Source: Candidatus Woesearchaeota archaeon
Lineage (GTDB): Archaea > Nanobdellota > Nanobdellia > Pacearchaeales > GW2011-AR1
Assembly: GCA_964572995.1 (NCBI GenBank)
Contig: CAZNIA010000001.1
Coordinates: 5,611 to 69,610 of the forward strand
Direction of reading: 5' to 3'
Length of the DNA stretch: 64,000 bases
Shown here: positions 21,701-58,576 of the stretch, in pieces
How positions within the stretch are numbered: position 1 is the stretch's first letter
How the letters are laid out: every line of letters begins with the position of its first letter
Notes under the pieces: model-generated
Databases searched by the model: none
What the model was told of the DNA's origin: nothing
Seen by the model: the letters and a program-made list of their open reading frames with translations, nothing else
Made by a program: the position numbers and the translations under genes

Positions 21701-22136
21701 TGTCCGCAGGGGTCAGAGATTCAAAATCTATTGTTGAAGATGTTGATGCATAAATTTCTCTTCCACCTACAGCATCCTGTTGCATGCAATCAAAAAATAG
21801 TCCTGCAGAAGTTATTTCTCCTGAAGTAATATCCTCAAATATTTGCTCTGTATATCCTGGAACTCTTAAAGCTAAACCATATAATCCATGCCAATAAAAA
21901 GTTTGAAATTTTAATGTTACATTTAATTCGGAAATATATCCTGCTTCTGAAGGGATATAGGTTAAAAATCCTGTAGAAAGTATATTGGTTATAAACATTA
22001 TACATATTATAAATGAGGAAAGCAAAGCAAAAGTCAATAATAAAAACTCCACTAAATCTTCTTTTCTTTTATTTTTTAATTCCTTATTTGCAATAACTAT
22101 TGTATTTTGAGAAGCTCTTTCCTCTTTTTTATTCAT
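18774..22136 (-). CDS. membrane-spanning FtsK/HerA-superfamily (VirB4/DUF87-like) P-loop ATPase (1120 aa). It has an N-terminal signal-anchor, a ~650-aa extracellular region with two carboxypeptidase-regulatory-like (transthyretin-fold) domains, a central TM helix and a C-terminal cytoplasmic ATPase
   Basis: Walker A is AIVAGATGMGKS and Walker B is VLLVFDEVHRLL; an R...SQ segment (RKWGMGVVLISQ) is also present. The TM helix is IPLWVFFAILSFISFVLLNIFIY. CarboxypepD_reg-like motifs are VHGYVKDTNGVPLENITVVIAGSNYTTDSNGIYNI and VWGYVNDTLGNPLDGVNIYLAGESTVTDENGYYSL. Confidence 0.8.
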   Translation of the reverse strand: MNKKEERASQNTIVIANKELKNKRKEDLVEFLLLTFALLSSFIICIMFITNILSTGFLTYIPSEAGYISELNVTLKFQTFYWHGLYGLALRVPGYTEQIFEDITSGEITSAGLFFDCMQQDAVGGREIYASTSSTIDFESLTPADTSQIDAWTGCSTGVDCASNTFLDTMWIMVGPTNITNIPSTHTYRWDGENGVFDLGILVDGEGNLVYVTHIEELQKGYSPDSTVNFQMLLPMLPSSTQRYYFFTDPYDECPEGGMGEVIATTVHGYVKDTNGVPLENITVVIAGSNYTTDSNGIYNITLDLMPGSHNLIAYGEGYDEYFSNITVNFSNYMIYKNITMHSATPSTGEVIFPFVWGYVNDTLGNPLDGVNIYLAGESTVTDENGYYSLTPEIIPQNYPIIATTLGFNNYYAILFFYQNTTNFNHNITMTLVNLGQTNNPYPTGPYEEEPGEEIQKIIEEIQRTGEDYWISTKDIFKEIRQNTFVDDTIGIYNFKTTNMNLLISLSSDISDFVKLDRDALILEPGKGEEIKITFYGTKPIGTYEGILKLSGDVEKEIPVKVKIIENRLPIETLLLSIDLFKNIVNPGENLNYKLNLQNLLIDQEYKVVLEKLIIGEEDSTVYHREIQEVEIRKALSIVDHINIPSNFSEGDYLFVVNAKYLGFSSSVTAPFSVRRPIYLYSFLGIPLWVFFAILSFISFVLLNIFIYKRYKEKRKRYGISLDLSTLPKADKSFFKLGLIAESKHPVYLEPERLKTHAIVAGATGMGKSISAQVLVEEALLKNVAVIVFDPTAQWSGLLRKCEDKKMISFYPKFGLKSTDARAFPGNIRQISHAREVIEIEKYIHPGQIQIFALNKLDPKDIDMFIASVIRQIFKSDPKEAQELKVLLVFDEVHRLLSKFGGSGEGFLQIERACREFRKWGMGVVLISQVLSDFVGEVKANINTEIQTRTIEESDLERIKTKYGEEFLKSLVRAEVGVAMFQNAEYNKGKPYFVNFRPILHNTRRLSDEELEKYNKYNDIIDDFENQINQLEKEKVDIFDLKMELKLIKDKLMTGNFSVVDIYVEGLGPRLQKQWEKIGKKPKKVEKKLLDTAEIQKSVEEAKKAREVYEKEEQKKQKNE

Positions 22137-22257: not shown

Positions 22258-22968
22258 ATGGCTTTATCAAAAATGTTTAAAAAAAACAATGCTCCTGATG
22301 AATTACCTGATTTGGCAATAGATGAGTTAAAGAAAGATTTAAAGAAAGATTATTCTGAAAAAGAAGAGCCAAAAGAGACTCTCCCTGAATTAAAAAAAGA
22401 AATCCCTTCTACTCCAGAGATAGTTGAAGAAAAGCCTGAAGAAGAAAATACTGGTGAAGAAGAGAAAGAAGCTACTGAAGATCCAGAAGAGAGCGTTGAA
22501 GAAAACGAAGAAGGAGATTCTGAAGAAAAGCCTGAAGAAGAAAATACTGGTGAAGAAGAGAAAGAGATAAAACCTTCCGAAGAAGAAAAAATTAATTTAG
22601 AAAAAAGTTTCTTTAACCCGCTTATAAATGAATTGAAAAAAGAAAATTTTGATCCTGCAAAAATAAACGCCTGGTATCAAAAAAGATTTTCTGATAAGAG
22701 TGCTATTGAAGAAATGAAAGAATATTGGGAGAAGCAAAAAAATGAATTTATAACAGAGACAGTTGAAAAAGAGTTTAAAGCAAGAATAAATGAAAGGATG
22801 CATCATCTACAAAAATTAGAATTAGAATGGCAAGAGATATATGTAAAACTAGTTGAAAAGGAAGAAGAAATGAAAAAAGAAGAAAAAAGTATAAAAAAAA
22901 TAATAAAAGATTTTTCAGAAGTAGTTAAAAGAAAAGGAAATCTTAAAAAAGCGCATAAGTCTAGATAA
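22258..22968 (+). CDS. highly acidic E/K-rich protein (236 aa) with an internal tandem repeat
   Basis: The 45-bp segment gaagaaaagcctgaagaagaaaatactggtgaagaagagaaagaa occurs twice with a 93-bp period (22425 and 22518), giving the EEKPEEENTGEEEKE repeat. Confidence 0.5.
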   Translation: MALSKMFKKNNAPDELPDLAIDELKKDLKKDYSEKEEPKETLPELKKEIPSTPEIVEEKPEEENTGEEEKEATEDPEESVEENEEGDSEEKPEEENTGEEEKEIKPSEEEKINLEKSFFNPLINELKKENFDPAKINAWYQKRFSDKSAIEEMKEYWEKQKNEFITETVEKEFKARINERMHHLQKLELEWQEIYVKLVEKEEEMKKEEKSIKKIIKDFSEVVKRKGNLKKAHKSR

Positions 22969-25965: not shown

Positions 25966-28900
25966 CTAGGCTTGAGTATATAATGAATTTTGTGTAACTG
26001 AAACTTCGTAGCCTTTTTCTGGTTCAATTATAAAATTGGTTCCTATATAAGGAGGTATCCAAGGGACAGGCGAACCTGTTGAAATGTATCCCTGGGATGT
26101 TTGGTTAAATGAATTCCAATTAGTTACAGCATCTGAGTAAGAAACAGAAGAAATTAAGTTATATGCATTTGTTTTAGAAGAGTTATAATATAAAGAAACC
26201 CAGTTTTTTCCAAAAGAAGTTGAATTCTTTATTAAATCCACCTCTACTGGAGATTTTACTGCTCCTACAAGGCTCCAATTTGTAAAGATTGGAGAAGTTA
26301 AGTTGAGATTCATCTCATAACCTCTGCCGTCCTCTAGGTTGAAATTGCAGTTATTGAGGGTACATCCCGGATAATCTGGACAAGAGAAATTATTACATGT
26401 AACTCTTTTTTGTATTGTGCTATTCCACATTGTAAAGGAAGTTATATTGTTTATCTCGCCAAGAGCTTCTTTTGAATCTGTAATATTTGTTTCAATGTAT
26501 AAACCCATCCAGTTTCTGGTATTTATTGAGGGCTTGCTTTGTATATAATACACTGTTTTTCCAAAAGTAGAATTAGTAAAATTTTCTGCTATAGGGTTCC
26601 AAGAAGAAATTCTATAAAACCTTCTTCTACTCTGATTAGCATTTGAGTCAGTATAATTTAAGTTAAATGTCTCATTCAGCAATGCAAATGCAATTGAAGC
26701 ATTCTCTGTGTAATATATTCTATATTTATATGCATGAGCAGATGTGTTCCAGGATAAAAAAATATCTCCTGTCCCGTCATTCTTTGTTTGAGAAATATCT
26801 GTTAAAGGGGAATCAGGAGGTAAGAAAGCTGCAAAAGTGAAATTAGTTGAATTAAATGCAAAATTTCCTGAATTATCAAAACATAAGATGTTCCATAGAT
26901 AATATCCGTCTGTTACAACATTCTTATTTGAAAAATTAAGAGAAGCCCCTTTTTCAGGATAACTTGTTGTTTCATTTGCGTGCCATATACCATCCCAGGT
27001 TCCGTAAAGAGTACAATTTACCACATCATTAGAATCATTCACAGAATAATTTAAAAATGGAATTAAATAACCTGTAAAGTTTGAATTATTTTCTGTAAGT
27101 AAATTTACATTTGGAGGGATTGTATCCAATGTTATCTTTCTTGTTTCTGTGGTGTTTGAATAATTTACAACATCAAAAATAGTTACATTATAATAATAAG
27201 AACCCTCTGGAAGATTTGTCCAATTTATTATTCTTCTTGAATCTGTATAGGTTGAAGAATTGTAAACTGTATAATTAGAATAATATAAATTAAATGTGAT
27301 ATTTACCTCATTCTCTTCTATAACAGACGTATTTACATATACCCAAGTTTGGGATTTGTTTGAAGTATCATTTTCTGTCGATCCTGAATAACTTATCAGA
27401 GGGTAAGTGCTATCAAAAGTGAAAGTAAAATTATTGAGTGCCCAACCATCATATCCCAAAGAGTCATTACATTTAATATTCCATAAATAAACTCCATCTT
27501 CATACAAAGCAAGTGAAAAGTTTATTGCATAGTATAGTTCTTCATCGCCTTCATTATAACTGGGTTCAGGATAAATTAATTTTCTTATCCAGACATCATC
27601 AAATTGTTCTGTAGCCCATGCATGAAGCCCTGATGTCCCTGAAGCATAAGTTGAATCTGTTAAATTAAATATTAAATTTCCATCTTCATAAGCAACAATT
27701 CTATTTCCAAATGTATTTAATTCTAATTCATAATCTGTTCCAACAGAAGGGGAAAATCCATAACTTCCTAAATTAGAAAGTGTGTGTCCGGTTGAAGATA
27801 ATTGTAAATAGTTATTTTGATAACCATAAACATATCCATTTCCACTAGCAGAAGGCATTCTTGCCATTAATTTCCAATCTGAATCACTTGTCTCATGATT
27901 TACAATTGCTCTTATAGAATGATTTCCTGTAACTGTTGTTCTTGTTAAATCACTATCCCCATCTAGAGTATTTCTTACTCTGTTATTTAATATTGCCCAA
28001 GTTCCCCTTGTCTCTGTCCAGCCATTCCCAACTGTATCACTATTTGGTCTGTTAAAATCCTCAAAAAATTCAAAAACATTACTTCCATTATTTTTAGGAT
28101 TTGAAGCGTCTGAATTAGAATGATAAATATAATAATTATCGTCAAATTTTCCAGCAGAAATAGGGGCTTGAATTCTAAACCAAATTTCTGTACTGGGGTC
28201 ATCAAATGCTGTTGAATTATATCTATCTAATTCAATATTTTGAGAGCCGTTCCAATAAACAATTCTTAAATCATCTCCATTATCTAAGAAATCAGAACCC
28301 GTTGTATCCAAAGTTAATAACATTGAATAATTCTGCTCAAGGGTATACAAACTTGGATTGGTAATATTTATAAGTTTTCTCTTGCTCCAGCCTGAACTAT
28401 ACCAATTTATTTCTTTTGTCTGATTATTGTGCCATCCTCCATTCCAGGTTCCATATAGTGAACAATAACTTATTCCGTCTGCATCTGAGAAATTAAAATG
28501 AAATTCCTCATCATCAAAACTTGTAAAGTAAGAATTATCTTCCGGAGAGAATAAACTTACAGCAGGACCATAGATTGAAATTGAAAAAGTTCTCTTTGCT
28601 AGAGCAATATTTCCAAAAGTATCATTAGAATAAAAGTAAAGTGTATGAGTTGCTTCTGTTGTGTCAAAGGTAGTATTTGTTCCGCAGGATATTGATTGGT
28701 TTGCTTGATTATCCAAATTCCACCAACACATACTTAAACCCACAACATTATCATAAATTGTATAATTAAGGGGCAGACTTGTATTATATGCATAAACTTT
28801 TGGTTCTGGAGAGATTATAATAACAGTGGGTCCTGTATTATCTAATCCAATTTTTCTTGTGGATGTAAAATTAATATTATAAGCGAGGTCAAGAATAGTC

Positions 28901-31900
28901 ACATTGTAATAATAAATTCCGTCTGGAAGAGAAGTGAAATTGATAAACCTTCTTGAATCATTGTATGAGCTTGAATTTACTAAAATATTCTCTGAATTAT
29001 AAAGATTAAAAGTGATATTGGCAAAATTGCTTTCTACTATTGAGGTGTTTATATAAATCCAGGTTCTTGAAAAGTTTGTATTATCGTTTTCAGTAGGGAA
29101 AGTGTAGGAAATTTGAGGGGTTGTTCCATCATAATAAAAACTATTATTTGATGAACCAAAAGTGTTTCCTGCAATATCAGAAACTTTGTAATTCCAGCTG
29201 AAAAAACCTTCAGAAGGGAGATTATAAATAATTCCTTTCAATAAATTTGTTCCTGAAATATTTTGAATAGTTTGATTAATTAAATGGGTTTGATTATACA
29301 CAGAAAGAGTTAAATTAGATAATTTAAGATTGTCTGTTAAGTTTACTGTAAGATTTTGTGAAGATGAATTTACATAAGAGTTGTTTAGAGGGGAGATTAG
29401 GGTTGCATTTGGAGGAGTTGTATCTAACCCTATTTGTCTTGTTGAAGTTGAATTTACATTATAAGCTAAATCTACAAGAATTACATTATAATAATAAATT
29501 GCGTCTGGGAGATTTGTCCAGTTAATTTCTCTTCTTGAATCTGTATAAACTGTAGAGTTTACAAGAGTTCCATTTAAATAATTAAGTCTGAATGTTATGT
29601 TTGCTTCATTTAATTCTATAACTGAAACGTTAACATAAATCCAGTTTCTTGAAAAGTTTGAATAATCATTCTCTGTAAGAAGAGAATATACTATTTGAGG
29701 GTAAGTGGTGTCTATTGTAATTGTATTATTTTGTGTTTGAAAGCTATTTCCTGCCAAATCAAATATCTTATAAAACCATTTAAAAATTCCATCATATAAA
29801 AAGTTGTAAACTATTCCTGTAATTATATCTGTTCCTGAGATATCTTGAGTTGTTTCGTTTATTAAATTGGTTTCATTGTATAAAAATAAAGTCATATTTG
29901 ATAATCCTAGATTATCATTTGCATTAACTGTTAAATTCTGTAAAGTGGAATTTGCATAAGTTTCATTCTCTGGAGAAACTAAGGTTGCATTAGGGTTATT
30001 TGTATCCAGAGTAATTGCTCTAGTTAATGTTAAAAATTCCCCATCAAGATCATCAAAAAGAGTTACATTATAATAATATAGTCCTTGCTGAAGATTTGTC
30101 CAGTTGATTTCTCTTCTTGAATCTGTATAAATAGATTCATTTACTAAACCGGAAAGATTATACAATCCAAATGTGACATTTATCTCTTCATTTACATTTG
30201 ATGTGGAAGTGTTTACATAAACCCAATCTCTTGAAAGACTTGCAAGATTCTCTTCTGTTGGAAAAATAAAGTTTATACTTGGAAGAGTTAAATTCAAATT
30301 TATTTTTCTTGTAGAAGTTGAATTGGAAAGATTAACAAAATCAAAAACAGTGATATTATAATAATAAAATCCTTCTTCTAAATTTGTCCAGTTAATTGTT
30401 CTTCTTTTATCTAAATAAGTTGAAGAATTAATCAAATTATGAGCTGAGTTGTATAAATTAAAGGTGATATTTGCTTCATGCTCTTCTATAACTGAAGTAT
30501 TTACATAAATCCATAATCTTGCAAATTTAGTATTGTTATTTGCAGTCCCTATTCCAAAATCCACAAATGGAGGCAAAGTATCCAGTGTTATTTTTCTTGT
30601 TGAAGTAGTATTTGAAAGGTTTACCATATCAAAAACTGTTACATTGTATAAATAAGAATTGTCTAATAAAGAAGTAAAATTAATTGAGGTTCTTGTTGTG
30701 TCTGTGTAAGTAGTAGAGTTTACAAGAGTGTAATTAGAAAAATATAAGTTAAATGTTATATTTTTGGGGTTTAATTCTGTAATTGAAGTATTAATGTAAA
30801 TCCAGTTTCTTGAAAAATTTGCATAATTATTTTCTGTTGGAGAAGAATAATCAATTAAAGGTTTGGTTGTATCCAGTGTTATCTTTCTTGTTGAAGTAGT
30901 ATTTGAAAGATTTACCATATCAAAAACTGTTACATCGTATAAATAAGAATTGTCTAATAAAGAAGTAAAATTAATTGAAGTTCTTGTTGTATCTGTGTAA
31001 GTAGTAGAGTTTACAAGAGTGTAATTAGAAAAATATAAGTTAAAGGTTATATTTTTGGGGTTTAATTCTGTAATTGAAGTATTAATGTAAATCCAATTTT
31101 GGCTTTTATTTGAACCATTTATATCTGTGGGATAAACAAAATCTATTTGAGGGAATGTATTATCTAAAACGAATGTGTTATTTATAAATGCAAATGCTGA
31201 GCTTCCTAAAGTGTCATTACATCTAACGTTCCAAAGATAGTTTCCATCTACTGAAAGATTAACTAAGAAGGATAAAGAAGGGGATGTCGTCTCTCCTCCT
31301 AAGGTATAAAAAGAAGAAGGATTATTTTGATTTTGGAAAGAAGCATTAATCCAAACAGGGCTTCTTGAGGTATTTGAAACACGAATTTCATCAAAAGTAC
31401 CATTAAAATATCCTCCGCTTGCATCAACAACTCCTTCTCCAATCTTCACAAAATAAGCTGAAGATCCATAACTAGCGGTACTACTGCCTCCACTTGATGC
31501 TGGAGAACCATCAAAATATAAAGTCAAATTTGTTCCTGTACCTACTGCTACAACATGATGCCAACTATTTACTCCATATGTATAAGAAGTAGAAGTGCTT
31601 CCTCCTCCGCTTGTCCAAATCATTACTGTGTTTGTTCCATCTATAAAAAATTCCGTAACATCATTTTGCCCATACAAACTTACTCTTGAGCCCCAAGCCC
31701 TAGGATAAATCCATCCTTCCAATGTAAAAGAACCTAAATTACTCATAAAATTACTTGTGGAATTAAGCATATCGTTGCTTCCGTCCAAATTATCTGCTCC
31801 ATCTACCTTTCCTGTTATTGCTTCGTCTCCTTCATATCCTGCTGAAGTCATATTTCTACCATTAGAAGTGCTATCAACCCTGCTTCCTGTTCCTGTCTCT

Positions 31901-34900
31901 TCTAAATGCTGAACCATCATATAATTAGAATCCCAAACTTTCGATGGGTTTTGCTGATTTGCTGAATTTGAATTATTATAATACATATAAAAAACATTAT
32001 TTGAAACAGAAGAAAGATTAACTTTAATCCAAGCAATAAGATGGGCATGAGTTGAATTGTAATTTTTATCAAATAATTCTATTTCGTGATTCAATTTATT
32101 CTTTCCATCTAAAGAAGTAAATAATATATCATAACCATCTGTTCTTGAATAATCGTGCAATGCCGCATCATAAATATCAATTAACATTGGGAAATTAGTA
32201 AGATTTGCTGTTATCTTTGATGAAGATACATTAATCTGCCTTCTTTTATTCCATTCTGAGTGATACCAACTTGACCAGGATAGAGTCTGATTATTATGCC
32301 ATCCTCCATTCCAGGTTCCATATAGTGAACAGAAACCCAATCCATCTGAATCCATTGCTGTAAAGTTAAAAAAGTTATTTTGAAGGGAATTAAAATAAGT
32401 TTTATTAGTTGGAGTAACAAGAGTTATTGCTGGCCCAGTGGTTGATACTGAAAAGCTAACTTCCACTATAGATAAATGATTGAGAGTGTCATTAGAATAA
32501 AAATTAAGACTATGAGTTCCTTCACTTGTATCAAAAGTGGTATTTGTTCCACAGGCGATTGTTTGATTTACCTGATTGTCTATATTCCACCAACACATGC
32601 TTACGCCTGCAACATTATCTCTTATAGTATAAGTTAAAGGAAGGCTGGAATTATAACTATAAGCCTTGAGTTCTGGTTCAAGAATATCTACTGTGGGTCC
32701 AACTGTATCTAACCCTATTTTTCTTGTTAAAGTTGAATTTATATTGTATGCTAAATCGATTACAGTAACATTATAATAATAAACTCCATCATTTAAATCT
32801 GTCCAGTTAATCTCTCTTCTTGAATCATTATAAGTTGAAGAATTGAAAAGATTGTATCCTGAATCATAAAGATTAAATGTAACATTTGCTTCATTCAATT
32901 CTGTAACAGAAAGATTTACATAAATCCAGGTTCTTGAAAAGTTTGCATTGTTCTCTTCTGTACTAGAACTAAAAGAAATTAAAGAATAAGTAGTATCAAT
33001 AATTATTGTATTATTTTGTGTTTGGAAATTATTTCCTGATAAATCAAAGATATTATAAAACCATTTGAAAATTCCATCATATAAAAAGTTGTAAACTATT
33101 CCTGTAATTATATCTGTTCCTGAGATATCTTGAGTAGTCTCATTTATTAAATTAGTTTCATTGTATACAAATAAAGTCATATTTGATAGGCCATAATTGT
33201 CAGATGCATTTAATGTAAAATTCTGCAAAGAGGAATTTAAATAAGTATTATTCTCAGGAGAGACCAAGGTTGCATTTGGATTTTCTAAATCTATAATCGC
33301 AAATTGGGTTTCATTATAATAAATAGAATAATTAAAAAAATCATCTCTCATCATTGAAAAATTGTAAATGCCTACTGCCAATTCCTGTTCTGAGTTATTT
33401 GATATGAATGTTCCGTTTCTATATAATGTGAAAGGAGTTGTACAATTTGCCCAGACTAAAAAAACATCTGAATAATTTAAGGGACTAGTTGCATTGAATA
33501 AAACCTGACAATTTTCTGGATTTTTATTTAATGTAAAAAAACTTGTGTTATAAATAAAAGAATAATTTGAAGTGTCTGTTCTTTGAGCTGTAAAATTGAA
33601 ATATCCTGCCCCATTTATTTGTTCTGAATTATTTAATATTATTGTCCCATCTCTATATAACGTAAATGTGGAAGTGGCATTTGCCCAGACTAAAAAAGTG
33701 TCAGGATAAGTTAATGGACTGGTTGAATTGAATAAAACTTGAAAGTTTTCTGGGTTTTTATTAACAGTAAAGAATTGTGTATTTATTATGTTTGTATAAT
33801 TTGCAGTGTCTGTTCTTTGTACTGTTAAATTATAATATCCTGCCCCTGAATTAATCAATGAATTGTTTGAAGTTATTGTTCCGTTTAAATAAAAGGTGTA
33901 ACCTGATGAACAATTTGTATATGCAATAAATGTTTCAGGATAAGTTATTGGAGAAGTTGCATTGAAATAAACTCCACAATCATAATAGCTTGATTTATTT
34001 ATCTGAACTGTATATCTTGTCCAATTGATATTATTAGCTGTATCATTAATTGTAACATTAATTTCATAGTTACCTACTGCCAAAGAGGTTGCATTACTTA
34101 AAAATCCTGATTGATTTATTGAAAACCTTGTATCATTAACAGAATAATATCCAAATTCAATGTCGTCTGTTGCATCGAAGTCTACACCCAGAGATTCATT
34201 TCCATAAAAGAGTGATTCATTATCTGGAATCTTTGTAAAATATGGAGGAATAGTATCAACAATTCTAAATTGCGTCTGATTAAATAGCATAGAATAGTTT
34301 TGAGTGTCTGTCCTAAACATTGAAAAATTATATGCACTAACAGACAATACCTGTTCCGAATTATTTGAGATTAATGTTCCGTTTCTATATAATGTAAAAG
34401 GGGTTGTGCAATTTGCCCAGACTAAAAAGGTGTCAGGATAAGTTAATGGACTAGTTGCATTGAATAAAACCTGACAATTTTCGGGGTTTTTATTAACAGT
34501 AAAGAATTGTGTATCAATTATTTTTGAATAATTCTGTGTGTCTGTTCTTTGTACTGTTAAATTATAATATCCTGCCCCTGAATTAATCAATGAATTGTTT
34601 GAAGTTATTGTTCCGTTTAAATAAAAGGTGTAACCTGATGAACAATTTGTATATGCAATAAATGTTTCAGGATAAGTTATTGGAGAAGTTGCATTGAAAT
34701 AAACTCCACAATCATAATAGCTTGATTTATTTATCTGAACTGTATATCTTGTCCAATTGATATTATTAGCTGTATCATTAATTGTAACATTAATTTCATA
34801 GTTACCTACTGCCAAAGAGGTTGCATTACTTAAAAATCCTGATTGATTTATTGAAAACCTTGTATCATTAACAGAATAATATCCAAATTCAATGTCGTCT

Positions 34901-37008
34901 GTTGCATCGAAGTCTACACCCAGAGATTCATTTCTGTAGAATATAGAAGAGTTTTGGGGGATTTTAATAAAAGTTGGAGAAGTCAAATCAAGAAAAAACT
35001 CCCCTGTTGAAATAGCTATCCAACTAAATTCTCTTCCATTGCAATTATTTCTGGTATCATCATCTTCTGCTGTTACGCTGAAAGAAGTTGTTGTTTTCCC
35101 AGACACTTCTATTTCACAAGTATCTGCTGTACCTGTTCTTGATGCTGTTGTTAAAACAACGTAATTGGTGTTTGGAAATGAACTTCCTAATGAAATTGAT
35201 TTTGAAGTTGCCCCAGAAGCAGTGTCATTTCCCGATTTAATGATTATTCCTCCGACTGTTTCTGTACCATAAGAAACAGCACACCAATCAATACTGCTAA
35301 CAGCTTCTGCTGCTCCTCCATCATCTAAAATTACTGAATTCCAACTTCCTGCTGATTTTGAAGAATAACTAACTCTTGGAGAATCAGCATCCCAAGGAGT
35401 ATAAGCAACAACTGCATAGTTTGTATCTGGGAAACTGGATTCAAAATTTATTGTGGATGTGCTTGAACCTGAACCTGAATTACATTTAACAGAAATGTTC
35501 TGGAAATCAAATTCTCCAAAAGAAAGAGCAGCCCATTCAACCCCTGCTGATTCGTTTGCACCTCCATCATCATTAATCCTATTTATTCTGAATCCTGTTG
35601 CTGCCTTTCTATCATATTGTATTGAGAAAATTGCATCGGTATCTTGTTGGCCTGAAAATAAAATAGAATAATCTGCATCAGGCATAGCAGTTGAAAAAGA
35701 AATTGAAGTTGGGGTATTTGCAGTATACGAACTTACTCCTGTACGAGCATAAAAATTAGGATCAATAATGTGATCAAACTCAACATTTCCCCCAACAATT
35801 CTTAAATCAAATGTGTCTTGAATTTCTTGTAAATTTGTCAAATAGACCTTATTATAATTATTATTAGTTAAAGGATTAAATTCTGCAATTTTCTCTGTTG
35901 AATCCTTTTCATAAACTTCAATAACAGGGTTTCCACTTATTATTCTCGGATACAAGGTTATATCTCTGGTATTATCTAAAGGTATTTCAAATGTAATCCT
36001 TACATAATCCCCCTCTGAGATTTTCTCACTCCAAATATCATCTAATTCTTTAACTTCATTGTAAATATCTGAAATAAACTCTCTAGATGGAGAAAGGTGC
36101 TCTGCATTTGTTATAATTATTATTTCAAATGTTTGATTAGATAAATGAGGAACAATCCATTCAATATAATCCAATAATCCATTTTCATTTGTATCAGAAG
36201 CATTAAAATCAATGTATGTGTTATTTTCTTTCCAATAAATCTGGATTGACTTCTTATTTTGCGTCTCTTTAGGAAGATTTGTATAAGAAAGTACATCTTG
36301 ATAACTAATTTCTTCAGGAGAATAAATAACAACTTCTTTTTTGTTTTCAGAAACACTTATTTCCTCTATTTTTGGGGGCCCAGTAGAATATTCTAATGTG
36401 AGTTGCTCTAATGTGTATTCATTAATCTGGACGTATCTCTTTTCATTAGATTCTATTACCTCATAATTGGAAAAAACCTCTCCATTATTTTTTTTAATTG
36501 TTAAATTTGTTATTTCTGGAATTTCAACAAGAGTTTCATTCACTGTTTTTTTCCAACGCACATTTTTATTTATTTCTGCTTTCTCCTGAATTAATTCTCC
36601 TTTAGTAGGGGTGTTTAGGGGAGACTCAGGAATAAGAGGAATATTTGAAGATGAAGAAACTACAGCAAAGGAATAAGATTTTTTTTCGTTTCCTCTTTTA
36701 AAATAAATAGAATAATTTCCTTCTTCAAGAAGATCAATAGAAAATCTGTCATTTGAACCAATCCTAAAATTTCTTTCTCCAGAAGGATTCATAATTATAA
36801 TTTCATAGTTGCCCATTTTGGATAAATCAAATTTTAGAACTGTTCCAAGAACATATGTACTGTCTTGTTTAAAATCAAAAAAAATAGAATCTTTGGAAGT
36901 ATCTACTTCTCCAGAGGTTGTTGAAGAAAAAATTATAAAAAAGATTATTCCAAAAATAAATAAGATAAAAAATCCAAAAACCCCTGCTTTAATCAACCCT
37001 TTTTTCAT
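25966..37008 (-). CDS. giant (3680 aa) N-glycosylated surface protein. It shares the head module with giant 1 and carries LamG/concanavalin-like and two DUF2341-like modules, >10 copies of a ~97-aa repeat, two 246-aa near-identical repeats, and a C-terminal FN3-like region
   Basis: The N-terminal anchor is LIKAGVFGFFILFIFGIIFFIIFS. The head segment ...IQIYWKENNTYIDFNASDTNENGLLDYIEWIVPHLSNQTFEIIIITNAEHL... is about 70% identical to giant 1. The LamG block from GKVDGADNLDGSNDMLNSTSNF to FNGTFDEIRVSNTSRS is also about 70% identical to giant 1. TWNGGWHNNQT occurs twice. Confidence 0.85.
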   Translation of the reverse strand: MKKGLIKAGVFGFFILFIFGIIFFIIFSSTTSGEVDTSKDSIFFDFKQDSTYVLGTVLKFDLSKMGNYEIIIMNPSGERNFRIGSNDRFSIDLLEEGNYSIYFKRGNEKKSYSFAVVSSSSNIPLIPESPLNTPTKGELIQEKAEINKNVRWKKTVNETLVEIPEITNLTIKKNNGEVFSNYEVIESNEKRYVQINEYTLEQLTLEYSTGPPKIEEISVSENKKEVVIYSPEEISYQDVLSYTNLPKETQNKKSIQIYWKENNTYIDFNASDTNENGLLDYIEWIVPHLSNQTFEIIIITNAEHLSPSREFISDIYNEVKELDDIWSEKISEGDYVRITFEIPLDNTRDITLYPRIISGNPVIEVYEKDSTEKIAEFNPLTNNNYNKVYLTNLQEIQDTFDLRIVGGNVEFDHIIDPNFYARTGVSSYTANTPTSISFSTAMPDADYSILFSGQQDTDAIFSIQYDRKAATGFRINRINDDGGANESAGVEWAALSFGEFDFQNISVKCNSGSGSSTSTINFESSFPDTNYAVVAYTPWDADSPRVSYSSKSAGSWNSVILDDGGAAEAVSSIDWCAVSYGTETVGGIIIKSGNDTASGATSKSISLGSSFPNTNYVVLTTASRTGTADTCEIEVSGKTTTSFSVTAEDDDTRNNCNGREFSWIAISTGEFFLDLTSPTFIKIPQNSSIFYRNESLGVDFDATDDIEFGYYSVNDTRFSINQSGFLSNATSLAVGNYEINVTINDTANNINWTRYTVQINKSSYYDCGVYFNATSPITYPETFIAYTNCSSGYTFYLNGTITSNNSLINSGAGYYNLTVQRTDTQNYSKIIDTQFFTVNKNPENCQVLFNATSPLTYPDTFLVWANCTTPFTLYRNGTLISNNSEQVLSVSAYNFSMFRTDTQNYSMLFNQTQFRIVDTIPPYFTKIPDNESLFYGNESLGVDFDATDDIEFGYYSVNDTRFSINQSGFLSNATSLAVGNYEINVTINDTANNINWTRYTVQINKSSYYDCGVYFNATSPITYPETFIAYTNCSSGYTFYLNGTITSNNSLINSGAGYYNLTVQRTDTANYTNIINTQFFTVNKNPENFQVLFNSTSPLTYPDTFLVWANATSTFTLYRDGTIILNNSEQINGAGYFNFTAQRTDTSNYSFIYNTSFFTLNKNPENCQVLFNATSPLNYSDVFLVWANCTTPFTLYRNGTFISNNSEQELAVGIYNFSMMRDDFFNYSIYYNETQFAIIDLENPNATLVSPENNTYLNSSLQNFTLNASDNYGLSNMTLFVYNETNLINETTQDISGTDIITGIVYNFLYDGIFKWFYNIFDLSGNNFQTQNNTIIIDTTYSLISFSSSTEENNANFSRTWIYVNLSVTELNEANVTFNLYDSGYNLFNSSTYNDSRREINWTDLNDGVYYYNVTVIDLAYNINSTLTRKIGLDTVGPTVDILEPELKAYSYNSSLPLTYTIRDNVAGVSMCWWNIDNQVNQTIACGTNTTFDTSEGTHSLNFYSNDTLNHLSIVEVSFSVSTTGPAITLVTPTNKTYFNSLQNNFFNFTAMDSDGLGFCSLYGTWNGGWHNNQTLSWSSWYHSEWNKRRQINVSSSKITANLTNFPMLIDIYDAALHDYSRTDGYDILFTSLDGKNKLNHEIELFDKNYNSTHAHLIAWIKVNLSSVSNNVFYMYYNNSNSANQQNPSKVWDSNYMMVQHLEETGTGSRVDSTSNGRNMTSAGYEGDEAITGKVDGADNLDGSNDMLNSTSNFMSNLGSFTLEGWIYPRAWGSRVSLYGQNDVTEFFIDGTNTVMIWTSGGGSTSTSYTYGVNSWHHVVAVGTGTNLTLYFDGSPASSGGSSTASYGSSAYFVKIGEGVVDASGGYFNGTFDEIRVSNTSRSPVWINASFQNQNNPSSFYTLGGETTSPSLSFLVNLSVDGNYLWNVRCNDTLGSSAFAFINNTFVLDNTFPQIDFVYPTDINGSNKSQNWIYINTSITELNPKNITFNLYFSNYTLVNSTTYTDTTRTSINFTSLLDNSYLYDVTVFDMVNLSNTTSTRKITLDTTKPLIDYSSPTENNYANFSRNWIYINTSITELNPKNITFNLYFSNYTLVNSTTYTDTTRTSINFTSLLDNSYLYNVTVFDMVNLSNTTSTRKITLDTLPPFVDFGIGTANNNTKFARLWIYVNTSVIEEHEANITFNLYNSAHNLINSSTYLDKRRTINWTNLEEGFYYYNITVFDFVNLSNSTSTRKINLNLTLPSINFIFPTEENLASLSRDWVYVNTSTSNVNEEINVTFGLYNLSGLVNESIYTDSRREINWTNLQQGLYYYNVTLFDDLDGEFLTLTRAITLDTNNPNATLVSPENETYANSTLQNLTVNANDNLGLSNMTLFLYNETNLINETTQDISGTDIITGIVYNFLYDGIFKWFYKIFDLAGNSFQTQNNTITIDTTYPQIVYSLLTENDYSNFSRNWIYVNVSVIELNEANITFRLNYLNGTLVNSTVYTDSRREINWTNLPDAIYYYNVILVDLAYNVNSTSTRQIGLDTTPPNATLISPLNNSYVNSSSQNLTVNLTDNLKLSNLTLSVYNQTHLINQTIQNISGTNLLKGIIYNLPSEGFFSWNYKVSDIAGNTFGSSNNSFYYDGTTPQISYTFPTENDNTNFSRTWIYINTSIVESNFANITFNLYNSENILVNSSSYNDSRRFINFTSLPDGIYYYNVTILDLAYNINFTSTRKIGLDNTGPTVIIISPEPKVYAYNTSLPLNYTIYDNVVGLSMCWWNLDNQANQSISCGTNTTFDTTEATHTLYFYSNDTFGNIALAKRTFSISIYGPAVSLFSPEDNSYFTSFDDEEFHFNFSDADGISYCSLYGTWNGGWHNNQTKEINWYSSGWSKRKLINITNPSLYTLEQNYSMLLTLDTTGSDFLDNGDDLRIVYWNGSQNIELDRYNSTAFDDPSTEIWFRIQAPISAGKFDDNYYIYHSNSDASNPKNNGSNVFEFFEDFNRPNSDTVGNGWTETRGTWAILNNRVRNTLDGDSDLTRTTVTGNHSIRAIVNHETSDSDWKLMARMPSASGNGYVYGYQNNYLQLSSTGHTLSNLGSYGFSPSVGTDYELELNTFGNRIVAYEDGNLIFNLTDSTYASGTSGLHAWATEQFDDVWIRKLIYPEPSYNEGDEELYYAINFSLALYEDGVYLWNIKCNDSLGYDGWALNNFTFTFDSTYPLISYSGSTENDTSNKSQTWVYVNTSVIEENEVNITFNLYYSNYTVYNSSTYTDSRRIINWTNLPEGSYYYNVTIFDVVNYSNTTETRKITLDTIPPNVNLLTENNSNFTGYLIPFLNYSVNDSNDVVNCTLYGTWDGIWHANETTSYPEKGASLNFSNKNVVTDGYYLWNILCFDNSGNFAFNSTNFTFAAFLPPDSPLTDISQTKNDGTGDIFLSWNTSAHAYKYRIYYTENASIAFALLNETFNLNYTDSNANQSRRRFYRISSWNPIAENFTNSTFGKTVYYIQSKPSINTRNWMGLYIETNITDSKEALGEINNITSFTMWNSTIQKRVTCNNFSCPDYPGCTLNNCNFNLEDGRGYEMNLNLTSPIFTNWSLVGAVKSPVEVDLIKNSTSFGKNWVSLYYNSSKTNAYNLISSVSYSDAVTNWNSFNQTSQGYISTGSPVPWIPPYIGTNFIIEPEKGYEVSVTQNSLYTQA
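30581..31165. repeat. near-identical 291-bp (97-aa) tandem repeat units inside giant gene 2
   Basis: The stretch tccagtgtta(t/c)ttttcttgttgaagtagtatttgaaag(g/a)tttaccatatcaaaaactgttacat... at 30581 recurs at 30872 with only a few mismatches. More diverged copies follow upstream. Confidence 0.8.
33808..34941. repeat. 738-bp tandem duplication with a ~395-bp perfectly identical core inside giant gene 2
   Basis: 33808-34203 and 34546-34941 are identical by eye. This gives the protein two copies of IP(Q/D)N.S.FY.NESLGVDFDATDDIEFGYYSVNDTRFSINQSGFLSNATSLAVGNYEINVTINDTANNINWTRYTVQINKSSYYDCGVYFNATSPITYPETFIAYTNCSSGYTFYLNGT. Confidence 0.85.
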
Positions 37009-37320: not shown

Positions 37321-37631
37321 AAAAATACCTTCTTCCTTTAATTCTTGCAATTTTTTGTATTGGTGGGGTAATCATTGCAGATAATTTTGGGGGAGGAATA
37401 AAATTAGAAGAAGGAAAAAATATAATTGATATTGAGATTGGATTCAATCCAATCTATGTAACAGATTTAATTAAGCTTTATCCTGAAATTAATACAATAA
37501 CTTACAATGAAAGCGGGGAGGAGATAGGATATGTAAATGCATTTGGGGGAATTGGAGAAAATTTTATAATTTATGCTAATAAAACTTACGAAATCACAAC
37601 TAAACAGGAGGTTATTTTAAATTTAGGATGA
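37317..37631 (+). CDS. small secreted protein (104 aa)
   Basis: Signal peptide MKKYLLPLILAIFCIGGVIIA. It is the first structural gene of a tightly overlapping + strand operon. Confidence 0.55.
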   Translation: MKKYLLPLILAIFCIGGVIIADNFGGGIKLEEGKNIIDIEIGFNPIYVTDLIKLYPEINTITYNESGEEIGYVNAFGGIGENFIIYANKTYEITTKQEVILNLG

Positions 37632-38827
37632 AAAAAATATTAATTTTAAATATGGTCGTAATATTTCTTATTATACCTCTTTATTCTGCAGCACATTACA
37701 TAGTGGGTATTGTTGAAGATGCAAAAGATGGAACCAGTTCTAATGATCATACAGTTTTATTATGGAATCCTTCTGTTGGAATATTTGAAAATCTCACAGA
37801 TATAATTGGACCAAATGGGAACTCTCATGTGAACAATATTTATATGATTGATTGTGAACTTCTTCCAAGCGGATGCAATATAGGAGAGGATCTAACTTTA
37901 AAGGTAATAAATAATGGAGATAATTATATATCTGAAGAAAAAAATGTTACTGTGAATGGATTCGGATATGATATTGTAGGAAACATAACTTTAAACTCTC
38001 CGCCAAATATAACAAATATAAATGTTGAAGATGATTTAATCTTCCCGGAAAATGAAATTGATTTAATACCTGCAGAAACAAAAGAAGTCCAATGTGTATC
38101 GATTATAACTGAATATGATGGAGAAGATTCGTTAAATAATGCAAGCGCAGTATTTTTTGATAATGTCTATTCACATTTTAATGATTTGGATGATAATAAT
38201 CATCATTATACTAACAATAGTTGTGATATCGATTATTCTTATGGAAATCAATATGAAGCAGAAATAACCTGCTTATTTAATGTGTGGTATTATTCGAACT
38301 CTGAAGATTGGAATTGTACAATTGCGATACAGGATAATCTATCCATAATTTCTAAAGCTGGAGACATAACCTTCATCAATCCTCTTCTTGCATTGGGCGT
38401 GGATTCTGTAATAAACTTTGATCTATTTGGAGGAGAAGAGGTTACAAGAGAAAATGAAGTCAATGTAACGAATTATGGAAATGTTAAAATAAATTTGTCT
38501 TTAAGCGGATATGCTTTTGAGGAAAATGATGGATATGCTATGAATTGTACATTTGAAGGTGAAACAAGTAATATTTCTATAGAATATGAAAAATTCAATC
38601 TTACTCAATCTAGTCAGGGGGCTCTTAGTTTAAGTGAATTTGAAAGTAGATATGTTAACTTAACTTCTTCTCCCCAGGTAAAGAAATTTGACCTGGATTA
38701 TAGAAAACAAGACTCTCAAAATGAAGCAATAAATTCTACTTATTGGAGAATATATGTTCCTTCACAAGTATCTGGAGAATGCCAAGGAAATATAATTTTT
38801 GGTGCAGTGACTGCACCAGGAGATTAA
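37628..38827 (+). CDS. secreted protein (399 aa); its N-terminal ~110-aa domain is duplicated in 42048..43931
   Basis: Signal peptide. AAHYIVGIVEDAKDGTSSNDHTVLLWNPSVGIFENLTDIIGPNGNSHVNNIYMIDCELLPSGCNIGEDLTLKVINNGDNYISEEKNVTV is nearly identical to the N-terminus of the 627-aa protein. Confidence 0.65.
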   Translation: MKKILILNMVVIFLIIPLYSAAHYIVGIVEDAKDGTSSNDHTVLLWNPSVGIFENLTDIIGPNGNSHVNNIYMIDCELLPSGCNIGEDLTLKVINNGDNYISEEKNVTVNGFGYDIVGNITLNSPPNITNINVEDDLIFPENEIDLIPAETKEVQCVSIITEYDGEDSLNNASAVFFDNVYSHFNDLDDNNHHYTNNSCDIDYSYGNQYEAEITCLFNVWYYSNSEDWNCTIAIQDNLSIISKAGDITFINPLLALGVDSVINFDLFGGEEVTRENEVNVTNYGNVKINLSLSGYAFEENDGYAMNCTFEGETSNISIEYEKFNLTQSSQGALSLSEFESRYVNLTSSPQVKKFDLDYRKQDSQNEAINSTYWRIYVPSQVSGECQGNIIFGAVTAPGD

Positions 38828-42047: not shown

Positions 42048-43931
42048 ATGAATAGAAAAAATATTTTAATTGTAACTTTATTTCTTTCTTTAGTTATACT
42101 TCTAATGAATATTATTTCTGCAGCACATTACATAGTGGGTATTGTGGAAGATGCAAAAGATGGAACCAGTTCTAATGATCATACAATTTTATTATGGAAT
42201 CCTTCTGTTGGAATATTTGAAAATCTCACAGACCTAATTGGACCAAATGGAAACTCTCATGTGAACAATATTTATATGATTGATTGTGAACTTCTTCCAA
42301 GTGGATGCAATATAGGAGAGAATCTAACTTTAAAGGTAATAAATAATGGGGAGAATTATATATCTGAAGAAAAAAATGTGACTGTGACTGGTGCCGGATA
42401 TGACCTTGTTAGCAATATAACATTAAACTCCCCTCCTGATGTAGGCCTAATTTTCCCTTACTCTTTTGCGAATATCTCTAGTTCAGAAATTAATTTTAAC
42501 TGTTCTATCTTTGACTTTGATTTAAACTTAAAGGAAGCGAGTTTATATGGAACTTGGGATGGAGGATGGAATTTAAATGAAACTAAGGGTATTATCTCAG
42601 AAGGAGGATTTATTACATTTAATAAAAATCTTTTGGAAGGCTTGTATGAATACAATTGTATGGCAACGGACAACCTTTTAACTTCATCCTTTGCAACAGA
42701 AAATATTACTTTCACTATTGATTTAACAAAACCGAATATTGAATCTATCTTTGTAAATTCAACTTATTCATGCGGCCAATCAAATTTTGTCAGAGTAAAT
42801 TGTACAACTTATGATACTTTACTTAATGTAGATAAGGTTATTATTCAAACTATTTCTCCTTCTGAAACAAAAAATTATACTGCCTCTCTTCTTACAAGTA
42901 ATACTTATTATTCAGATATTTTGTTGGATGAGGTTGGAGGCTGGACATTTAATTGTATTTCAAATGATACTGCTGGAAACGTAAACAATTTAACTTCTCA
43001 AATAGTGAATGTCTTCTCTAATTCTCCTGAATTATATATCAATTTTACAACTATTAGGTTAAGTGAAGAAAAACCTATAGAAAACCAAGAAATAAAAATT
43101 AATGCAGTTATTGAAAATTTTGGTTGTTCAATTGCTGAAAACGTATTGGTTAGTTTTTTTGAAGGCGACCCTTCTGAATCTGGAGATAATATTTATAACT
43201 ATACTTTAAACATAAGTTCTCTTTCAGCTTTTCCTGCAAATATTTCATGGATTGCTAAAATAGGTCCAAACAATATATTTGTTATTGCGGATTATGATAA
43301 TAAAATAAATGAAGAAAACGAGACTAATAATAAAGCAAATAACACCTTTTCTATAAATGCCTGGCAAGATATTTATGGAAATATTAGCTTAGATAAAATA
43401 ATTGGGGGGGATAATATTAGCATAAAGAAATGGTTCAATGAGAGTCAGCTTGAAGGCCATGTTTTCATAACAGATTCTGAATGCGAAGTGGATTGGCTTT
43501 CCTTGCAAGCCCTGGGGAAGTCTAAATCTGGTGAAGATAGTTCTAATGATTTTTTAGAAATTGATGAAGTATTAAATATGATTAATTTTGAAGATTCAAT
43601 ATCTAATGTCTTTTCAGATAATCAAAATCCTAAGAACACAAAAAATATGTTAATTTATCAAAAAGAGATAGAAAATGTTCCAGTCATAAAATCGACTAAT
43701 AATTCTAATTTCATAACAGGGCTCCTATGGGATTTTTCTGATGATAGAGAAGGAGAAAATGGAGAATTTGATACAATAGATAAAGAAGATATAGTTTTTG
43801 TTGCAGAAGTCAATAAAAGTTCTGAAGGAAATTATGGACTTTACGATTATGAGATAAAAATACCTTCAAGATTAAGAGAGTATAATAATTTAGATAATGA
43901 AGAGGTGTATCTTTATTACAATTTAAATTAA
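42048..43931 (+). CDS. secreted protein (627 aa). Its N-terminal domain is paralogous to 37628..38827, and its C-terminal CARDB-like module plus conserved tail is shared with giant protein 1
   Basis: The C-terminal ~250 aa (from ...EIKINAVIENFG to SFFEGDPSESGD, and STNNSNFITGLLWDFSDD...YGLYDYEIKIPSRLREYN) aligns with the giant 1 C-terminus (...STNNSNFVTGILWDFSDD...YGTYDYELRVPARLREYN). Confidence 0.7.
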   Translation: MNRKNILIVTLFLSLVILLMNIISAAHYIVGIVEDAKDGTSSNDHTILLWNPSVGIFENLTDLIGPNGNSHVNNIYMIDCELLPSGCNIGENLTLKVINNGENYISEEKNVTVTGAGYDLVSNITLNSPPDVGLIFPYSFANISSSEINFNCSIFDFDLNLKEASLYGTWDGGWNLNETKGIISEGGFITFNKNLLEGLYEYNCMATDNLLTSSFATENITFTIDLTKPNIESIFVNSTYSCGQSNFVRVNCTTYDTLLNVDKVIIQTISPSETKNYTASLLTSNTYYSDILLDEVGGWTFNCISNDTAGNVNNLTSQIVNVFSNSPELYINFTTIRLSEEKPIENQEIKINAVIENFGCSIAENVLVSFFEGDPSESGDNIYNYTLNISSLSAFPANISWIAKIGPNNIFVIADYDNKINEENETNNKANNTFSINAWQDIYGNISLDKIIGGDNISIKKWFNESQLEGHVFITDSECEVDWLSLQALGKSKSGEDSSNDFLEIDEVLNMINFEDSISNVFSDNQNPKNTKNMLIYQKEIENVPVIKSTNNSNFITGLLWDFSDDREGENGEFDTIDKEDIVFVAEVNKSSEGNYGLYDYEIKIPSRLREYNNLDNEEVYLYYNLN

Positions 43932-56943: not shown

Positions 56944-57070
56944 TAAATCTTAAATTAACCCTCCCTCCCCTTGATTTCTTATGGAAATATTTATAAAGAA
57001 TTTTTTTATTTTTTTATTTTTTTATTTATTTTATAAAAATATATATAATATAATATATATATAATATAAT

Positions 57071-57105
57071 TAATAATTAATAATTAATAATTAATAATTA
57101 ATAAT
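57071..57105. repeat. (TAATAAT)5 perfect tandem repeat inside the origin AT-rich region (candidate duplex-unwinding element)
   Basis: taataattaataattaataattaataattaataat is read directly. Confidence 0.85.
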
Positions 57106-57213
57106 TTAAATTAATAATTTTTATAATAATTTATAATTTAAAAAAATTAATTTTAAAATTTTTCATTTAAGTGGATAATTTAATTGAAGTTAATTAATTT
57201 CATTGTTTAATTC

Positions 57214-57361: not shown

Positions 57362-58576
57362 ATGAAGTTAGATATAGATAAAATATTTGATAATTTTGAT
57401 AAAAATAGTGTATTTAAAAATAAAGCTATTTTACAATCTAATTATGCACCTAGCGAAATTCCACATAGAGAAGAGCAGATAAGGCAAATAGCTTCAATTT
57501 TAGCTCCTGTTTTAAGAGGAGAGAAAACAAGTAATTTATTTTTATATGGAAAAACAGGTACTGGAAAGACTCTTGCAATGAAATTTGTTCAAGAAGAATT
57601 ATATAAACGAGTTAAGAAGGACGCAGATTTTAAACTTAAAATAGAATATTTAAATTGTAAGATGAAGAAAGTATCTGATACTGAATATAGAATTCTTGCT
57701 GAATTAATTAAAAAAATGGGAGGAGAAGTTCCATTAACAGGTTTGCCTACCCAAGCTATTTATAATAAATTTATTGAAACAATTGATTCCGAAAAAAACT
57801 TAATTGTGCTTATTTTAGATGAAATAGATCAAACTGTTAAGAAGATTTCAAATGATTTTTTGTATAGTCTTGTTCGATTAAATTCTGAATTATCCAAATC
57901 TCAAATATGTCTTGTGGGAATAAGCAATGATTTGAGGTTTTTAGAAGAATTAGACCCCCGAGTTAGAAGCTCTTTATCGGAAGAGGAAATACTCTTTCAT
58001 CCTTATAATGCTCTTCAAATACAAGATATTCTTAATCAAAGGGCAGAATTAGCCTTTAAAGAAGAAGTTTTACAAGAAGGAGTTATAAATAAATGCGCTG
58101 CTCTTGCAGCAAAAGAACATGGTGATGCTAGAAGAGCTTTAGATTTGTTGAGAGTTGCAGGAGAATTAGCTGAAAGAGATAATTCCAGGAAAATTTTGTT
58201 GAAATATATTGATTATGCTAATGAAAAGATAGAAAAAGATAAAATTTTAGAAACAATTTCTTCTGAACCCAAGCAATTTCAATTAGTTTTAAGATCAATT
58301 ATTTATCTTTTAGAGCATCAAAAAAATGATTTACCTGTTTTTACTGGAGAAGTATATGATTTTTATCAACAACTTTGTCTTAAAAATAGATTGGAAGTTT
58401 TAACTCAAAGGAGAGTGGGAGAAATTATTCAAGAATTAGATATGTTAGGAATAATTAATGTAAGAGTAATTTCTAAGGGAAGGGGAGGTAGAATGAGAGA
58501 AATAAAAATGGCAATCTCCAAAGAAATTACAAATAAAGCCAAAGAAATAATTGAAAACTCTCTTAATTATGTTTAA
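57362..58576 (+). CDS. cdc6: Orc1/Cdc6 origin recognition/replication initiator protein (AAA+ plus C-terminal winged helix)
   Basis: Walker A is LFLYGKTGTGKT and Walker B is LILDEIDQ. Sensor and winged-helix regions are present, and the size (404 aa) and position next to the ORBs fit. Confidence 0.95.
   Translation: MKLDIDKIFDNFDKNSVFKNKAILQSNYAPSEIPHREEQIRQIASILAPVLRGEKTSNLFLYGKTGTGKTLAMKFVQEELYKRVKKDADFKLKIEYLNCKMKKVSDTEYRILAELIKKMGGEVPLTGLPTQAIYNKFIETIDSEKNLIVLILDEIDQTVKKISNDFLYSLVRLNSELSKSQICLVGISNDLRFLEELDPRVRSSLSEEEILFHPYNALQIQDILNQRAELAFKEEVLQEGVINKCAALAAKEHGDARRALDLLRVAGELAERDNSRKILLKYIDYANEKIEKDKILETISSEPKQFQLVLRSIIYLLEHQKNDLPVFTGEVYDFYQQLCLKNRLEVLTQRRVGEIIQELDMLGIINVRVISKGRGGRMREIKMAISKEITNKAKEIIENSLNYV

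Follow-up and report, generated by a model that had tools for sequence, protein, structure and literature searches.

We analyzed a 64,000-nucleotide (nt) stretch of contig CAZNIA010000001.1 from a Candidatus Woesearchaeota archaeon (the whole of which is hereafter called the window) and found that giant gene 2, an uninterrupted open reading frame (ORF) of 3,680 amino acids (aa) on the minus strand (25966-37008), contains two pairs of near-identical stretches that are probably (at a rough estimate, 70%) recent gene-conversion tracts between old paralogous units, that is, a case of concerted evolution. We favor gene conversion over tandem duplication because the tracts are shorter than the repeat period, because their edges are sharp and because the order of the modules that contain the larger pair is shared with a sister species. 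A preliminary description of the window had offered very recent tandem duplication and ongoing concerted evolution as alternatives; the mosaic pattern of identity and the outgroup data presented below favor the latter.

That in-frame coding repeats exist in giant gene 2, as the preliminary description had claimed, was confirmed by self-BLASTN of the ORF and by an exact-match scan of the whole window, with both repeat pairs falling inside the ORF and in frame. The members of the larger pair (33620-34202 and 34352-34934) aligned over 584 columns with 95.2% identity, 26 mismatches and 2 gaps, and they share a 397-nt stretch (33806-34202 and 34538-34934) that is 100% identical, in good agreement with the perfectly identical core of ~395 bp reported before. 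No other exact repeat in the window comes close, the runner-up being 68 nt. The repeat unit had been given as 738 bp; the repeat is present, but its start-to-start offset is 732 nt, and at an offset of 738 no identical run exceeds 5 nt. The smaller pair (30578-30808 and 30869-31099) does have the offset of 291 nt assigned to it, although its identity is 97.0% over 231 aligned nt (7 mismatches, longest exact run 53 nt) rather than ~98%. Tandem Repeats Finder reported only an older 234-nt period (33445-33879, 77% matches); it missed the 732-nt repeat because its maximum period was 500, which puts a 732-nt period outside its range. No competing ORF of at least 70 aa overlaps either tract, and we rejected an overlapping opposite-strand gene in the repeat region on the same ground.

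The larger pair lies within two consecutive modules, each corresponding to three immunoglobulin (Ig)-like beta-sandwich domains. Module 1 (34258-34989, minus strand; aa 674-917) spans one 732-nt period and consists of units B1-A1-A2, module 2 (33526-34257, minus strand; aa 918-1161) consists of B2-A3-A4, and a further A unit, A5 (33289-33510, minus strand; aa 1167-1240), follows; the letters refer to a unit map made with hidden Markov models built from the giant protein's own units. When the two modules were compared in coding orientation, the first 18 codons were ~55-60% identical, the next 397 nt 100% and the following 186 nt 86% (26 mismatches), with background identity beyond. The perfect tract in module 1 (34538-34934, minus strand; aa 692-824), the putative acceptor, extends from residue 19 of B1 to the end of that unit and through the first 58 residues of A1, and the copy in module 2 (33806-34202, minus strand; aa 936-1068), the putative donor, covers the matching part of B2 and the first part of A3. 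The 86% stretch, which probably represents an older homogenized flank, occupies 34352-34537 in module 1 (minus strand; aa 825-886) and 33620-33805 in module 2 (minus strand; aa 1069-1130), and 24 of its 62 codons differ between the copies, 12 synonymously and 12 non-synonymously. The module alignment contains 100 mismatches in 732 nt, and when these were placed at random 100,000 times, the longest clean run was 101 nt and none reached 397; chance is excluded as the source of the 397-nt run because no permutation exceeded 101 nt. At the divergence rate of the flank, 397 nt without a difference would be expected with a probability of 1.5e-26.

The smaller pair shows a similar mosaic. Its 231-nt tracts lie in the adjacent units C1 (30869-31099, minus strand; aa 1970-2047) and C2 (30578-30808, minus strand; aa 2067-2144), and in the sequences flanking them identity falls to ~50-57%. 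Because six of the seven differences between the C1 and C2 tracts are synonymous, the nucleotide data argue that these sequences are real and constrained coding DNA. Neither tract fills its period, the perfect one covering 397 of 732 nt and the C1/C2 one 231 of 291 nt, and the edges of the tracts are out of phase with the edges of the units. The identity pattern therefore includes high-identity tracts with sharp edges beyond what uniform mutation gives, as gene conversion would leave, and neither pair is identical over one full period or more, as a recent tandem duplication would be.

The nearest genome among the Genome Taxonomy Database (GTDB) representatives is that of "Ca. Diapherotrites archaeon ADurb.Bin253" (L008; Nanobdellati, DPANN), and homologs of the repeat region occur in metagenome-assembled genomes (MAGs) labelled Pacearchaeota, Nanobdellota, Nanoarchaeia and "Diapherotrites". 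The L008 contig is syntenic with the window: neighboring genes occur in the same order and mostly encode proteins with 59-86% identity, and two small adjacent ORFs have 37-53% protein identity. The syntenic ortholog of giant gene 2 (L008:8552-14014) encodes a protein of 1,820 aa whose units run B A A B A A A A C F, such that the order of the first five domains, B-A-A-B-A, is common to both genes. In L008, B1A1 and B2A3 share 92 of 134 residues (~68%), compared with 133 of 135 for the same stretch in the window. The duplication of the B-A-A module is old, since the sister species has the B-A-A-B-A order with copies ~68% identical, and this comparison of predicted proteins shows that it preceded the split of the window lineage from the sister species. 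Paralogous units older than the tract were found in one sister species and, in part, in a third species (L017). Elsewhere in the gene, a C C D C D C block of the sister species is collinear with C3 C4 D C D C of the window.

The same comparison provides information on the direction of transfer. Both window cores match module 2 of L008 (O_B2A3) at 103-104 of 135 residues and module 1 (O_B1A1) at 91 of 134, and they match the module-2 copy of L017 at 95-97 of 135. The 18 residues upstream of the tract, by contrast with the shared core, are module-specific, with the motif SIFY in the B1 units of the window and of L008 (W_B1 and O_B1) and PYFT..IP.N.SLFY in the B2 units of the window, L008 and L017 (W_B2, O_B2 and L17_B2). 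We propose that, in the window lineage, 397 nt of module 2 (B2/A3) replaced the matching part of module 1, by non-reciprocal homologous recombination between misaligned, pre-existing paralogous units. The conversion would have run to the point where older homology ends, and the shared upstream edge would be expected if heteroduplex extension halts at that end. The 86% flank would be the remnant of an earlier, longer homogenized tract, and a slightly older 231-nt event of like kind would have homogenized the neighboring units C1 and C2. When the same repeat recombination resolves as a crossover or by slippage, domain blocks would be gained or lost, and the two-fold difference in length among orthologs would arise because repeat recombination adds and removes such blocks. 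By analogy with other giant surface proteins, the consequence is likely to be an altered reach and surface of a protein that contacts a host or a substrate.

Several observations weigh against this interpretation. The direction of transfer depends on modest counts (103-104 versus 91 of ~135 residues), and the positional signal in the 18 upstream residues is weak (8-10 identities in 15). L008 is the single sister species with both modules, L017 having module 2 only, and its own modules may have been converted. Counterparts of C1 and C2 are missing in relatives, and it is possible that these two units are a lineage-specific duplication that was then partially overwritten. The 100% identity of the core may in part be a consensus effect of assembly. 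Lastly, the functional consequence of conversion is drawn by analogy from the giant surface proteins of DPANN archaea.

Alternatively, the 732-nt and 291-nt segments could each have been placed head to tail very recently by unequal crossing-over or replication slippage. A true tandem duplication would account for copies that stand side by side in direct orientation and in the same frame, at periods that are whole multiples of a domain; large expansions are known in the family (window aa ~1260-3200 are matched by one C unit in L008), and the lack of sister-species counterparts of C1 and C2 implies that the window lineage alone gained, or retained, one or more additional C units. A fresh copy, however, would be identical over its full period, whereas the identity seen covers 397 of 732 and 231 of 291 nt before dropping to 86% and ~55%, and the B-A-A-B-A order, present in the sister species with copies ~68% identical, marks the larger duplication as old. 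We consider such an origin unlikely. For the 732-nt pair, the claim of a very recent tandem duplication did not hold up, given the partial length of the tract, its abrupt edges and the age of the module in the sister species; for the 291-nt pair, in which a 231-nt tract is set between diverged flanks, it is doubtful.

An artifact of assembly, in which a short-read assembler merged small differences between copies or threaded one graph node twice, so that the true copy number may differ, deserves consideration since short-read assemblies of relatives repeatedly break inside the orthologous gene and the L008 sequence could be a collapsed form of that in a longer relative (L010). Yet the two copies of the core differ in what surrounds them, each with a separate upstream and a separate downstream flank, in one frame and within an intact ORF of 3,680 aa; because these four flanks are distinct, the data contain two ways into the core and two ways out of it. 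Merging, moreover, erases only small differences; the core would still stand far above its 86% flank, and the mosaic would stay. The 291-nt pair retains seven differences, six of them synonymous, as real sequence would. An artifact thus seems quite improbable to us. Hardly credible is the proposal that selection on the protein, not recency, keeps the domains identical. The units do encode folded domains, according to an AlphaFold2 model, and the changes in the C1/C2 tract are mostly synonymous, but selection on the protein cannot hold ~130 codons identical at synonymous sites, the adjoining flank of the same domains accepts 12 non-synonymous codon changes in 62 codons, and orthologous modules differ by ~30%. 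Weighed against these alternatives, gene conversion between old units remains the explanation that we favor.

The repeats correspond to whole folded domains of a large, predicted extracellular protein. The unit order of the giant gene 2 product is an N-terminal region, B A A B A A A, D C E F, a region with DUF2341 and LamG domains, C C C C D C D C E F, a DUF2341 region, C F and a C-terminal region. Repeated Ig-like units account for ~55% of the 3,680 residues; B units are ~93 aa long, A units ~78 aa and C and D units ~97 aa, and most units are old and diverged (30-80% identity). AlphaFold2 modelled the B-A-A module as all-beta, with three consecutive beta-sandwich domains and a mean predicted local distance difference test (pLDDT) score of 95.1, so that 732 nt corresponds to three domains and 291 nt to one. 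An older segmental repeat of D-C units (29419-29991, minus strand; aa 2340-2530) is 81% identical to its partner (32704-33276, minus strand; aa 1245-1435), with an offset of 3285 nt and a 68-nt exact run; this pair belongs to a higher-order duplication of a D-C-E-F block.

Searches of the whole protein with Pfam and NCBIfam models yielded only Laminin_G_3 (aa 1743-1887), DUF2341 (aa 2910-2998), Gp53-like_C (aa 586-666) and Ig-like matches, including Big_7. There is a single hydrophobic segment (aa 3-33), near the N terminus, and none at the C terminus. N-X-S/T sequons number 216, compared with 95 expected from composition, and 34% of all residues are Asn, Thr or Ser; the sequon enrichment suggests that the protein would be very densely N-glycosylated. 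The predicted product is an extracellular "beads-on-a-string" protein, either secreted or N-terminally anchored. Repeats that encode whole folded domains, combined with a predicted extracellular location, are among the features expected of a surface protein that varies in repeat number.

Foldseek comparison of the B-A-A module with the PDB returned tandem Ig/cadherin-like arrays as top matches (E-values 7e-9 to 1e-6), including SGBP-B, GhpA grappling-hook fragments, cadherin-23 and protocadherins, whereas a PDB sequence search with the module gave nothing beyond one chance-level antibody match. The predicted fold of the B-A-A module, with its three consecutive beta-sandwiches, is of the kind seen in the arrays of cadherin and protocadherin ectodomains, Aureispira GhpA, Bacteroides SGBP-B and the extender repeats of RTX adhesins. 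The template modelling (TM) scores between these cadherin-like arrays and the module are 0.3-0.4, low because the relative orientation of the domains differs, and sequence identity is 9-16%. One homolog (P0013) is named "cadherin repeat domain-containing protein" by NCBI, but the module had no match to Pfam Cadherin (PF00028) at E <= 1; Big_13 matched below threshold, as did Cadherin_pro (13-18.7 bits versus its cut-off of 23 bits). The resemblance, as judged from the model, is one of fold class only.

Near-identical in-frame repeats and concerted evolution are classic features of bacterial adhesins. The repeat-variable adhesins (alpha C/Rib of group B streptococci, SasG/Aap of staphylococci and Bap/Esp) contain in-frame identical or near-identical DNA repeats that correspond to whole beta-sandwich domains of an extracellular protein, undergo homogenization and changes in copy number by repeat recombination and differ in length between strains, and giant gene 2 is like them in each of these respects, its family including proteins of 1,820, 2,982 and 3,680 aa. 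It is unlike them in having two copies per near-identical tract instead of a long uniform array, in its archaeal host, in tract edges that do not coincide with unit edges, in the old age of most of its units, and in a sequon-rich product with an N-terminal hydrophobic segment and without a C-terminal membrane-anchor segment. No sequence relationship between giant gene 2 and these adhesin families was found.

A further likeness is to the giant proteins described from the surface of DPANN archaea, which have Ig-like arrays and LamG domains and include the "SPEARE"-type proteins of Nanohaloarchaeota and LamG/PKD surface proteins (PMC10266531, citing Hamm et al. 2019). Two nanohaloarchaeal proteins differ by 529 aa in a block of tandem Ig-like domains, and VirB4-like ATPases are encoded next to nanohaloarchaeal giant proteins (PMC10266531). 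The giant gene 2 product likewise belongs to a DPANN genome and has an N-terminal signal or anchor, extended series of Ig-like domains and lectin-like LamG modules, and genes for HerA/VirB4-like (DUF87, AAA_10) ATPases lie near its gene. At 3,680 aa, however, it is under half the length of SPEARE proteins (8,880-9,409 aa), it comes from a different DPANN lineage, and neither a VirB4/TraG-like ATPase domain nor the protease or endonuclease domains first proposed for SPEARE proteins were detected by Pfam and NCBIfam across the whole protein. The likeness is one of architecture and neighbors.

The large DUF87/HerA/AAA_10-type ATPase genes, at 18774-22136 and 43928-46288 (both minus strand), flank the giant-gene region, an arrangement that recalls the VirB4-like ATPases beside nanohaloarchaeal giant proteins. 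One of the two ATPases has N-terminal CarboxypepD_reg Ig-like domains, and a weak PHROG "terminase" match reflects the DUF87/HerA-type ATPase fold. Viral contigs scanned by protein and with a 60-nt pattern from the core gave no match, and we therefore do not take the weak "tail fibre gp53-like" and "terminase" profile matches as evidence of a virus. The region is chromosomal, adjoins the Cdc6 and PolD genes and is syntenic in other DPANN genomes.

The preliminary description had also predicted that recombination between repeats would alter protein length, and members of the gene family do differ in this way, with 1,820 aa in L008, 2,982 aa in L010 and 3,680 aa in the window. Window residues 1-1255 and 3199-3680 are collinear with the 1,820-aa ortholog, and the intervening ~1260-3200 correspond to one C unit there; L017 also ends ...B A A A C F. 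The L010 contig (UPXM01000266, from activated sludge) is 99% identical to L008 and has 3,486 extra nt inside the gene, which add the units A C C D C D C and duplicate aa 433-835. Direct repeats of 1,209 nt (L010:6364-7571 and L010:9850-11058; 99.2% identical) bound the 3,486-nt block that is missing in L008. Comparison of the two copies shows 9 differing sites, and comparison with the single copy of other strains shows 60-82; the differences between strains in this segment are concentrated in two dense patches, at the start and at the end of the B1 domain. Either the sister species is truly polymorphic for deletion or expansion through these 1.2-kb repeats, or L008 is a collapsed assembly; under both readings, the repeat is real in the sister species and the gene is hard for short-read assembly. 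Family members further off have other unit orders (for example, BAAAABAAADCEDCEFCCDC).

Contig ends in independent metagenome assemblies of relatives fall repeatedly within the orthologous gene. Three further assemblies of the sister species are broken at its 1.2-kb repeat, the L013 and L016 contigs ending at aa ~830-838 of the ortholog and the L011 contig starting inside the repeat, and the L017 contig starts inside the orthologous giant gene. L017/P0001 and P0005 are annotated as "partial" at contig ends, and most database entries for these proteins are likewise "partial". Neither the 3,680-aa giant protein nor the 399-aa protein encoded upstream of it has an exact record in public assemblies. 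The downstream 556-aa gene and PolD DP2 are identical in ~7 other samples, where the contigs are short and end before the repeats; the organism is present in SRR11845636, ERZ27282986, SRR8925820, SRR8925725, SRR8925740, ERR7570002 and SRR35833629. A 700-aa query around the repeats returned no database match above 77% identity, so that no fragment of this species' repeat region is present there.

The window contains a second giant gene and other surface-protein genes. Giant gene 1 (419-12253, minus strand; 3,944 aa) is a paralog of giant gene 2, and the two proteins share three blocks with 50-59% identity (the N-terminal, DUF2341 and LamG regions). Its product has a DNRLRE domain and matches to Big_13, Big_7 and CARDB, and the gene has no near-identical internal DNA repeats. 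Recent exchange between the two giant genes was rejected on the basis of protein identity of at most 59% and the lack of any exact run of at least 30 nt. Two further stretches (37681-37998 and 42112-42430) match at 93% identity across 319 nt, the longest exact run being 50 nt, and form the 5' parts of surface-protein genes at 37628-38827 (399 aa) and 42048-43931 (627 aa); CARDB was found only in the 627-aa protein. Orthologs of these two proteins in the sister species are only ~65% identical to them, and from the nucleotide alignment, the shared 5' parts look like concerted evolution between genes. A small gene (22258-22968, plus strand) contains a 45-nt exact direct repeat with an offset of 96 nt (22425-22565).

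The window has a GC content of ~30% and contains no tRNA genes. Genes for Orc1/Cdc6 (57362-58576) and for the small (58591-60243) and large (60293-63757) subunits of PolD mark it as archaeal. An AT-rich block with short tandem repeats (periods of 7, 8, 16 and 32 nt) lies directly upstream of the Orc1/Cdc6 gene (57000-57160) and looks like a chromosomal replication origin.

The giant surface proteins of DPANN archaea are believed to make the contact with the host, and they often account for a large share of a very small genome. Gene conversion is commonplace in the evolution of repetitive surface-protein genes, and our data reveal no new kind of mechanism. A more speculative proposal, which we hold to be improbable, is that the Ig-like units of giant gene 2, its paralog and their neighbors form a cassette system that produces population-level variants of the host-contact protein of a DPANN episymbiont by frequent conversion and by gain or loss of blocks. 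Concerted evolution at three places in the window (the two tracts and the 5' parts of the 399-aa and 627-aa genes) is compatible with such a system, as are the strain-level structural variation and hypervariable patches in the sister species; against it, nothing indicates that the rate of variation is raised or that the variation is selected or regulated. If true, it would be the archaeal equivalent of antigenic or adhesin variation in bacteria and would help the episymbiont to switch or track hosts.

The giant genes of DPANN archaea are sites at which MAGs assembled from short reads break or collapse, and published lengths and domain counts for these proteins are best regarded as provisional. 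In the window, the locus provides a clean and dated example of domain-scale gene conversion atop old duplications, and among its close relatives, blocks of roughly 1,200-1,900 residues have been gained or lost.

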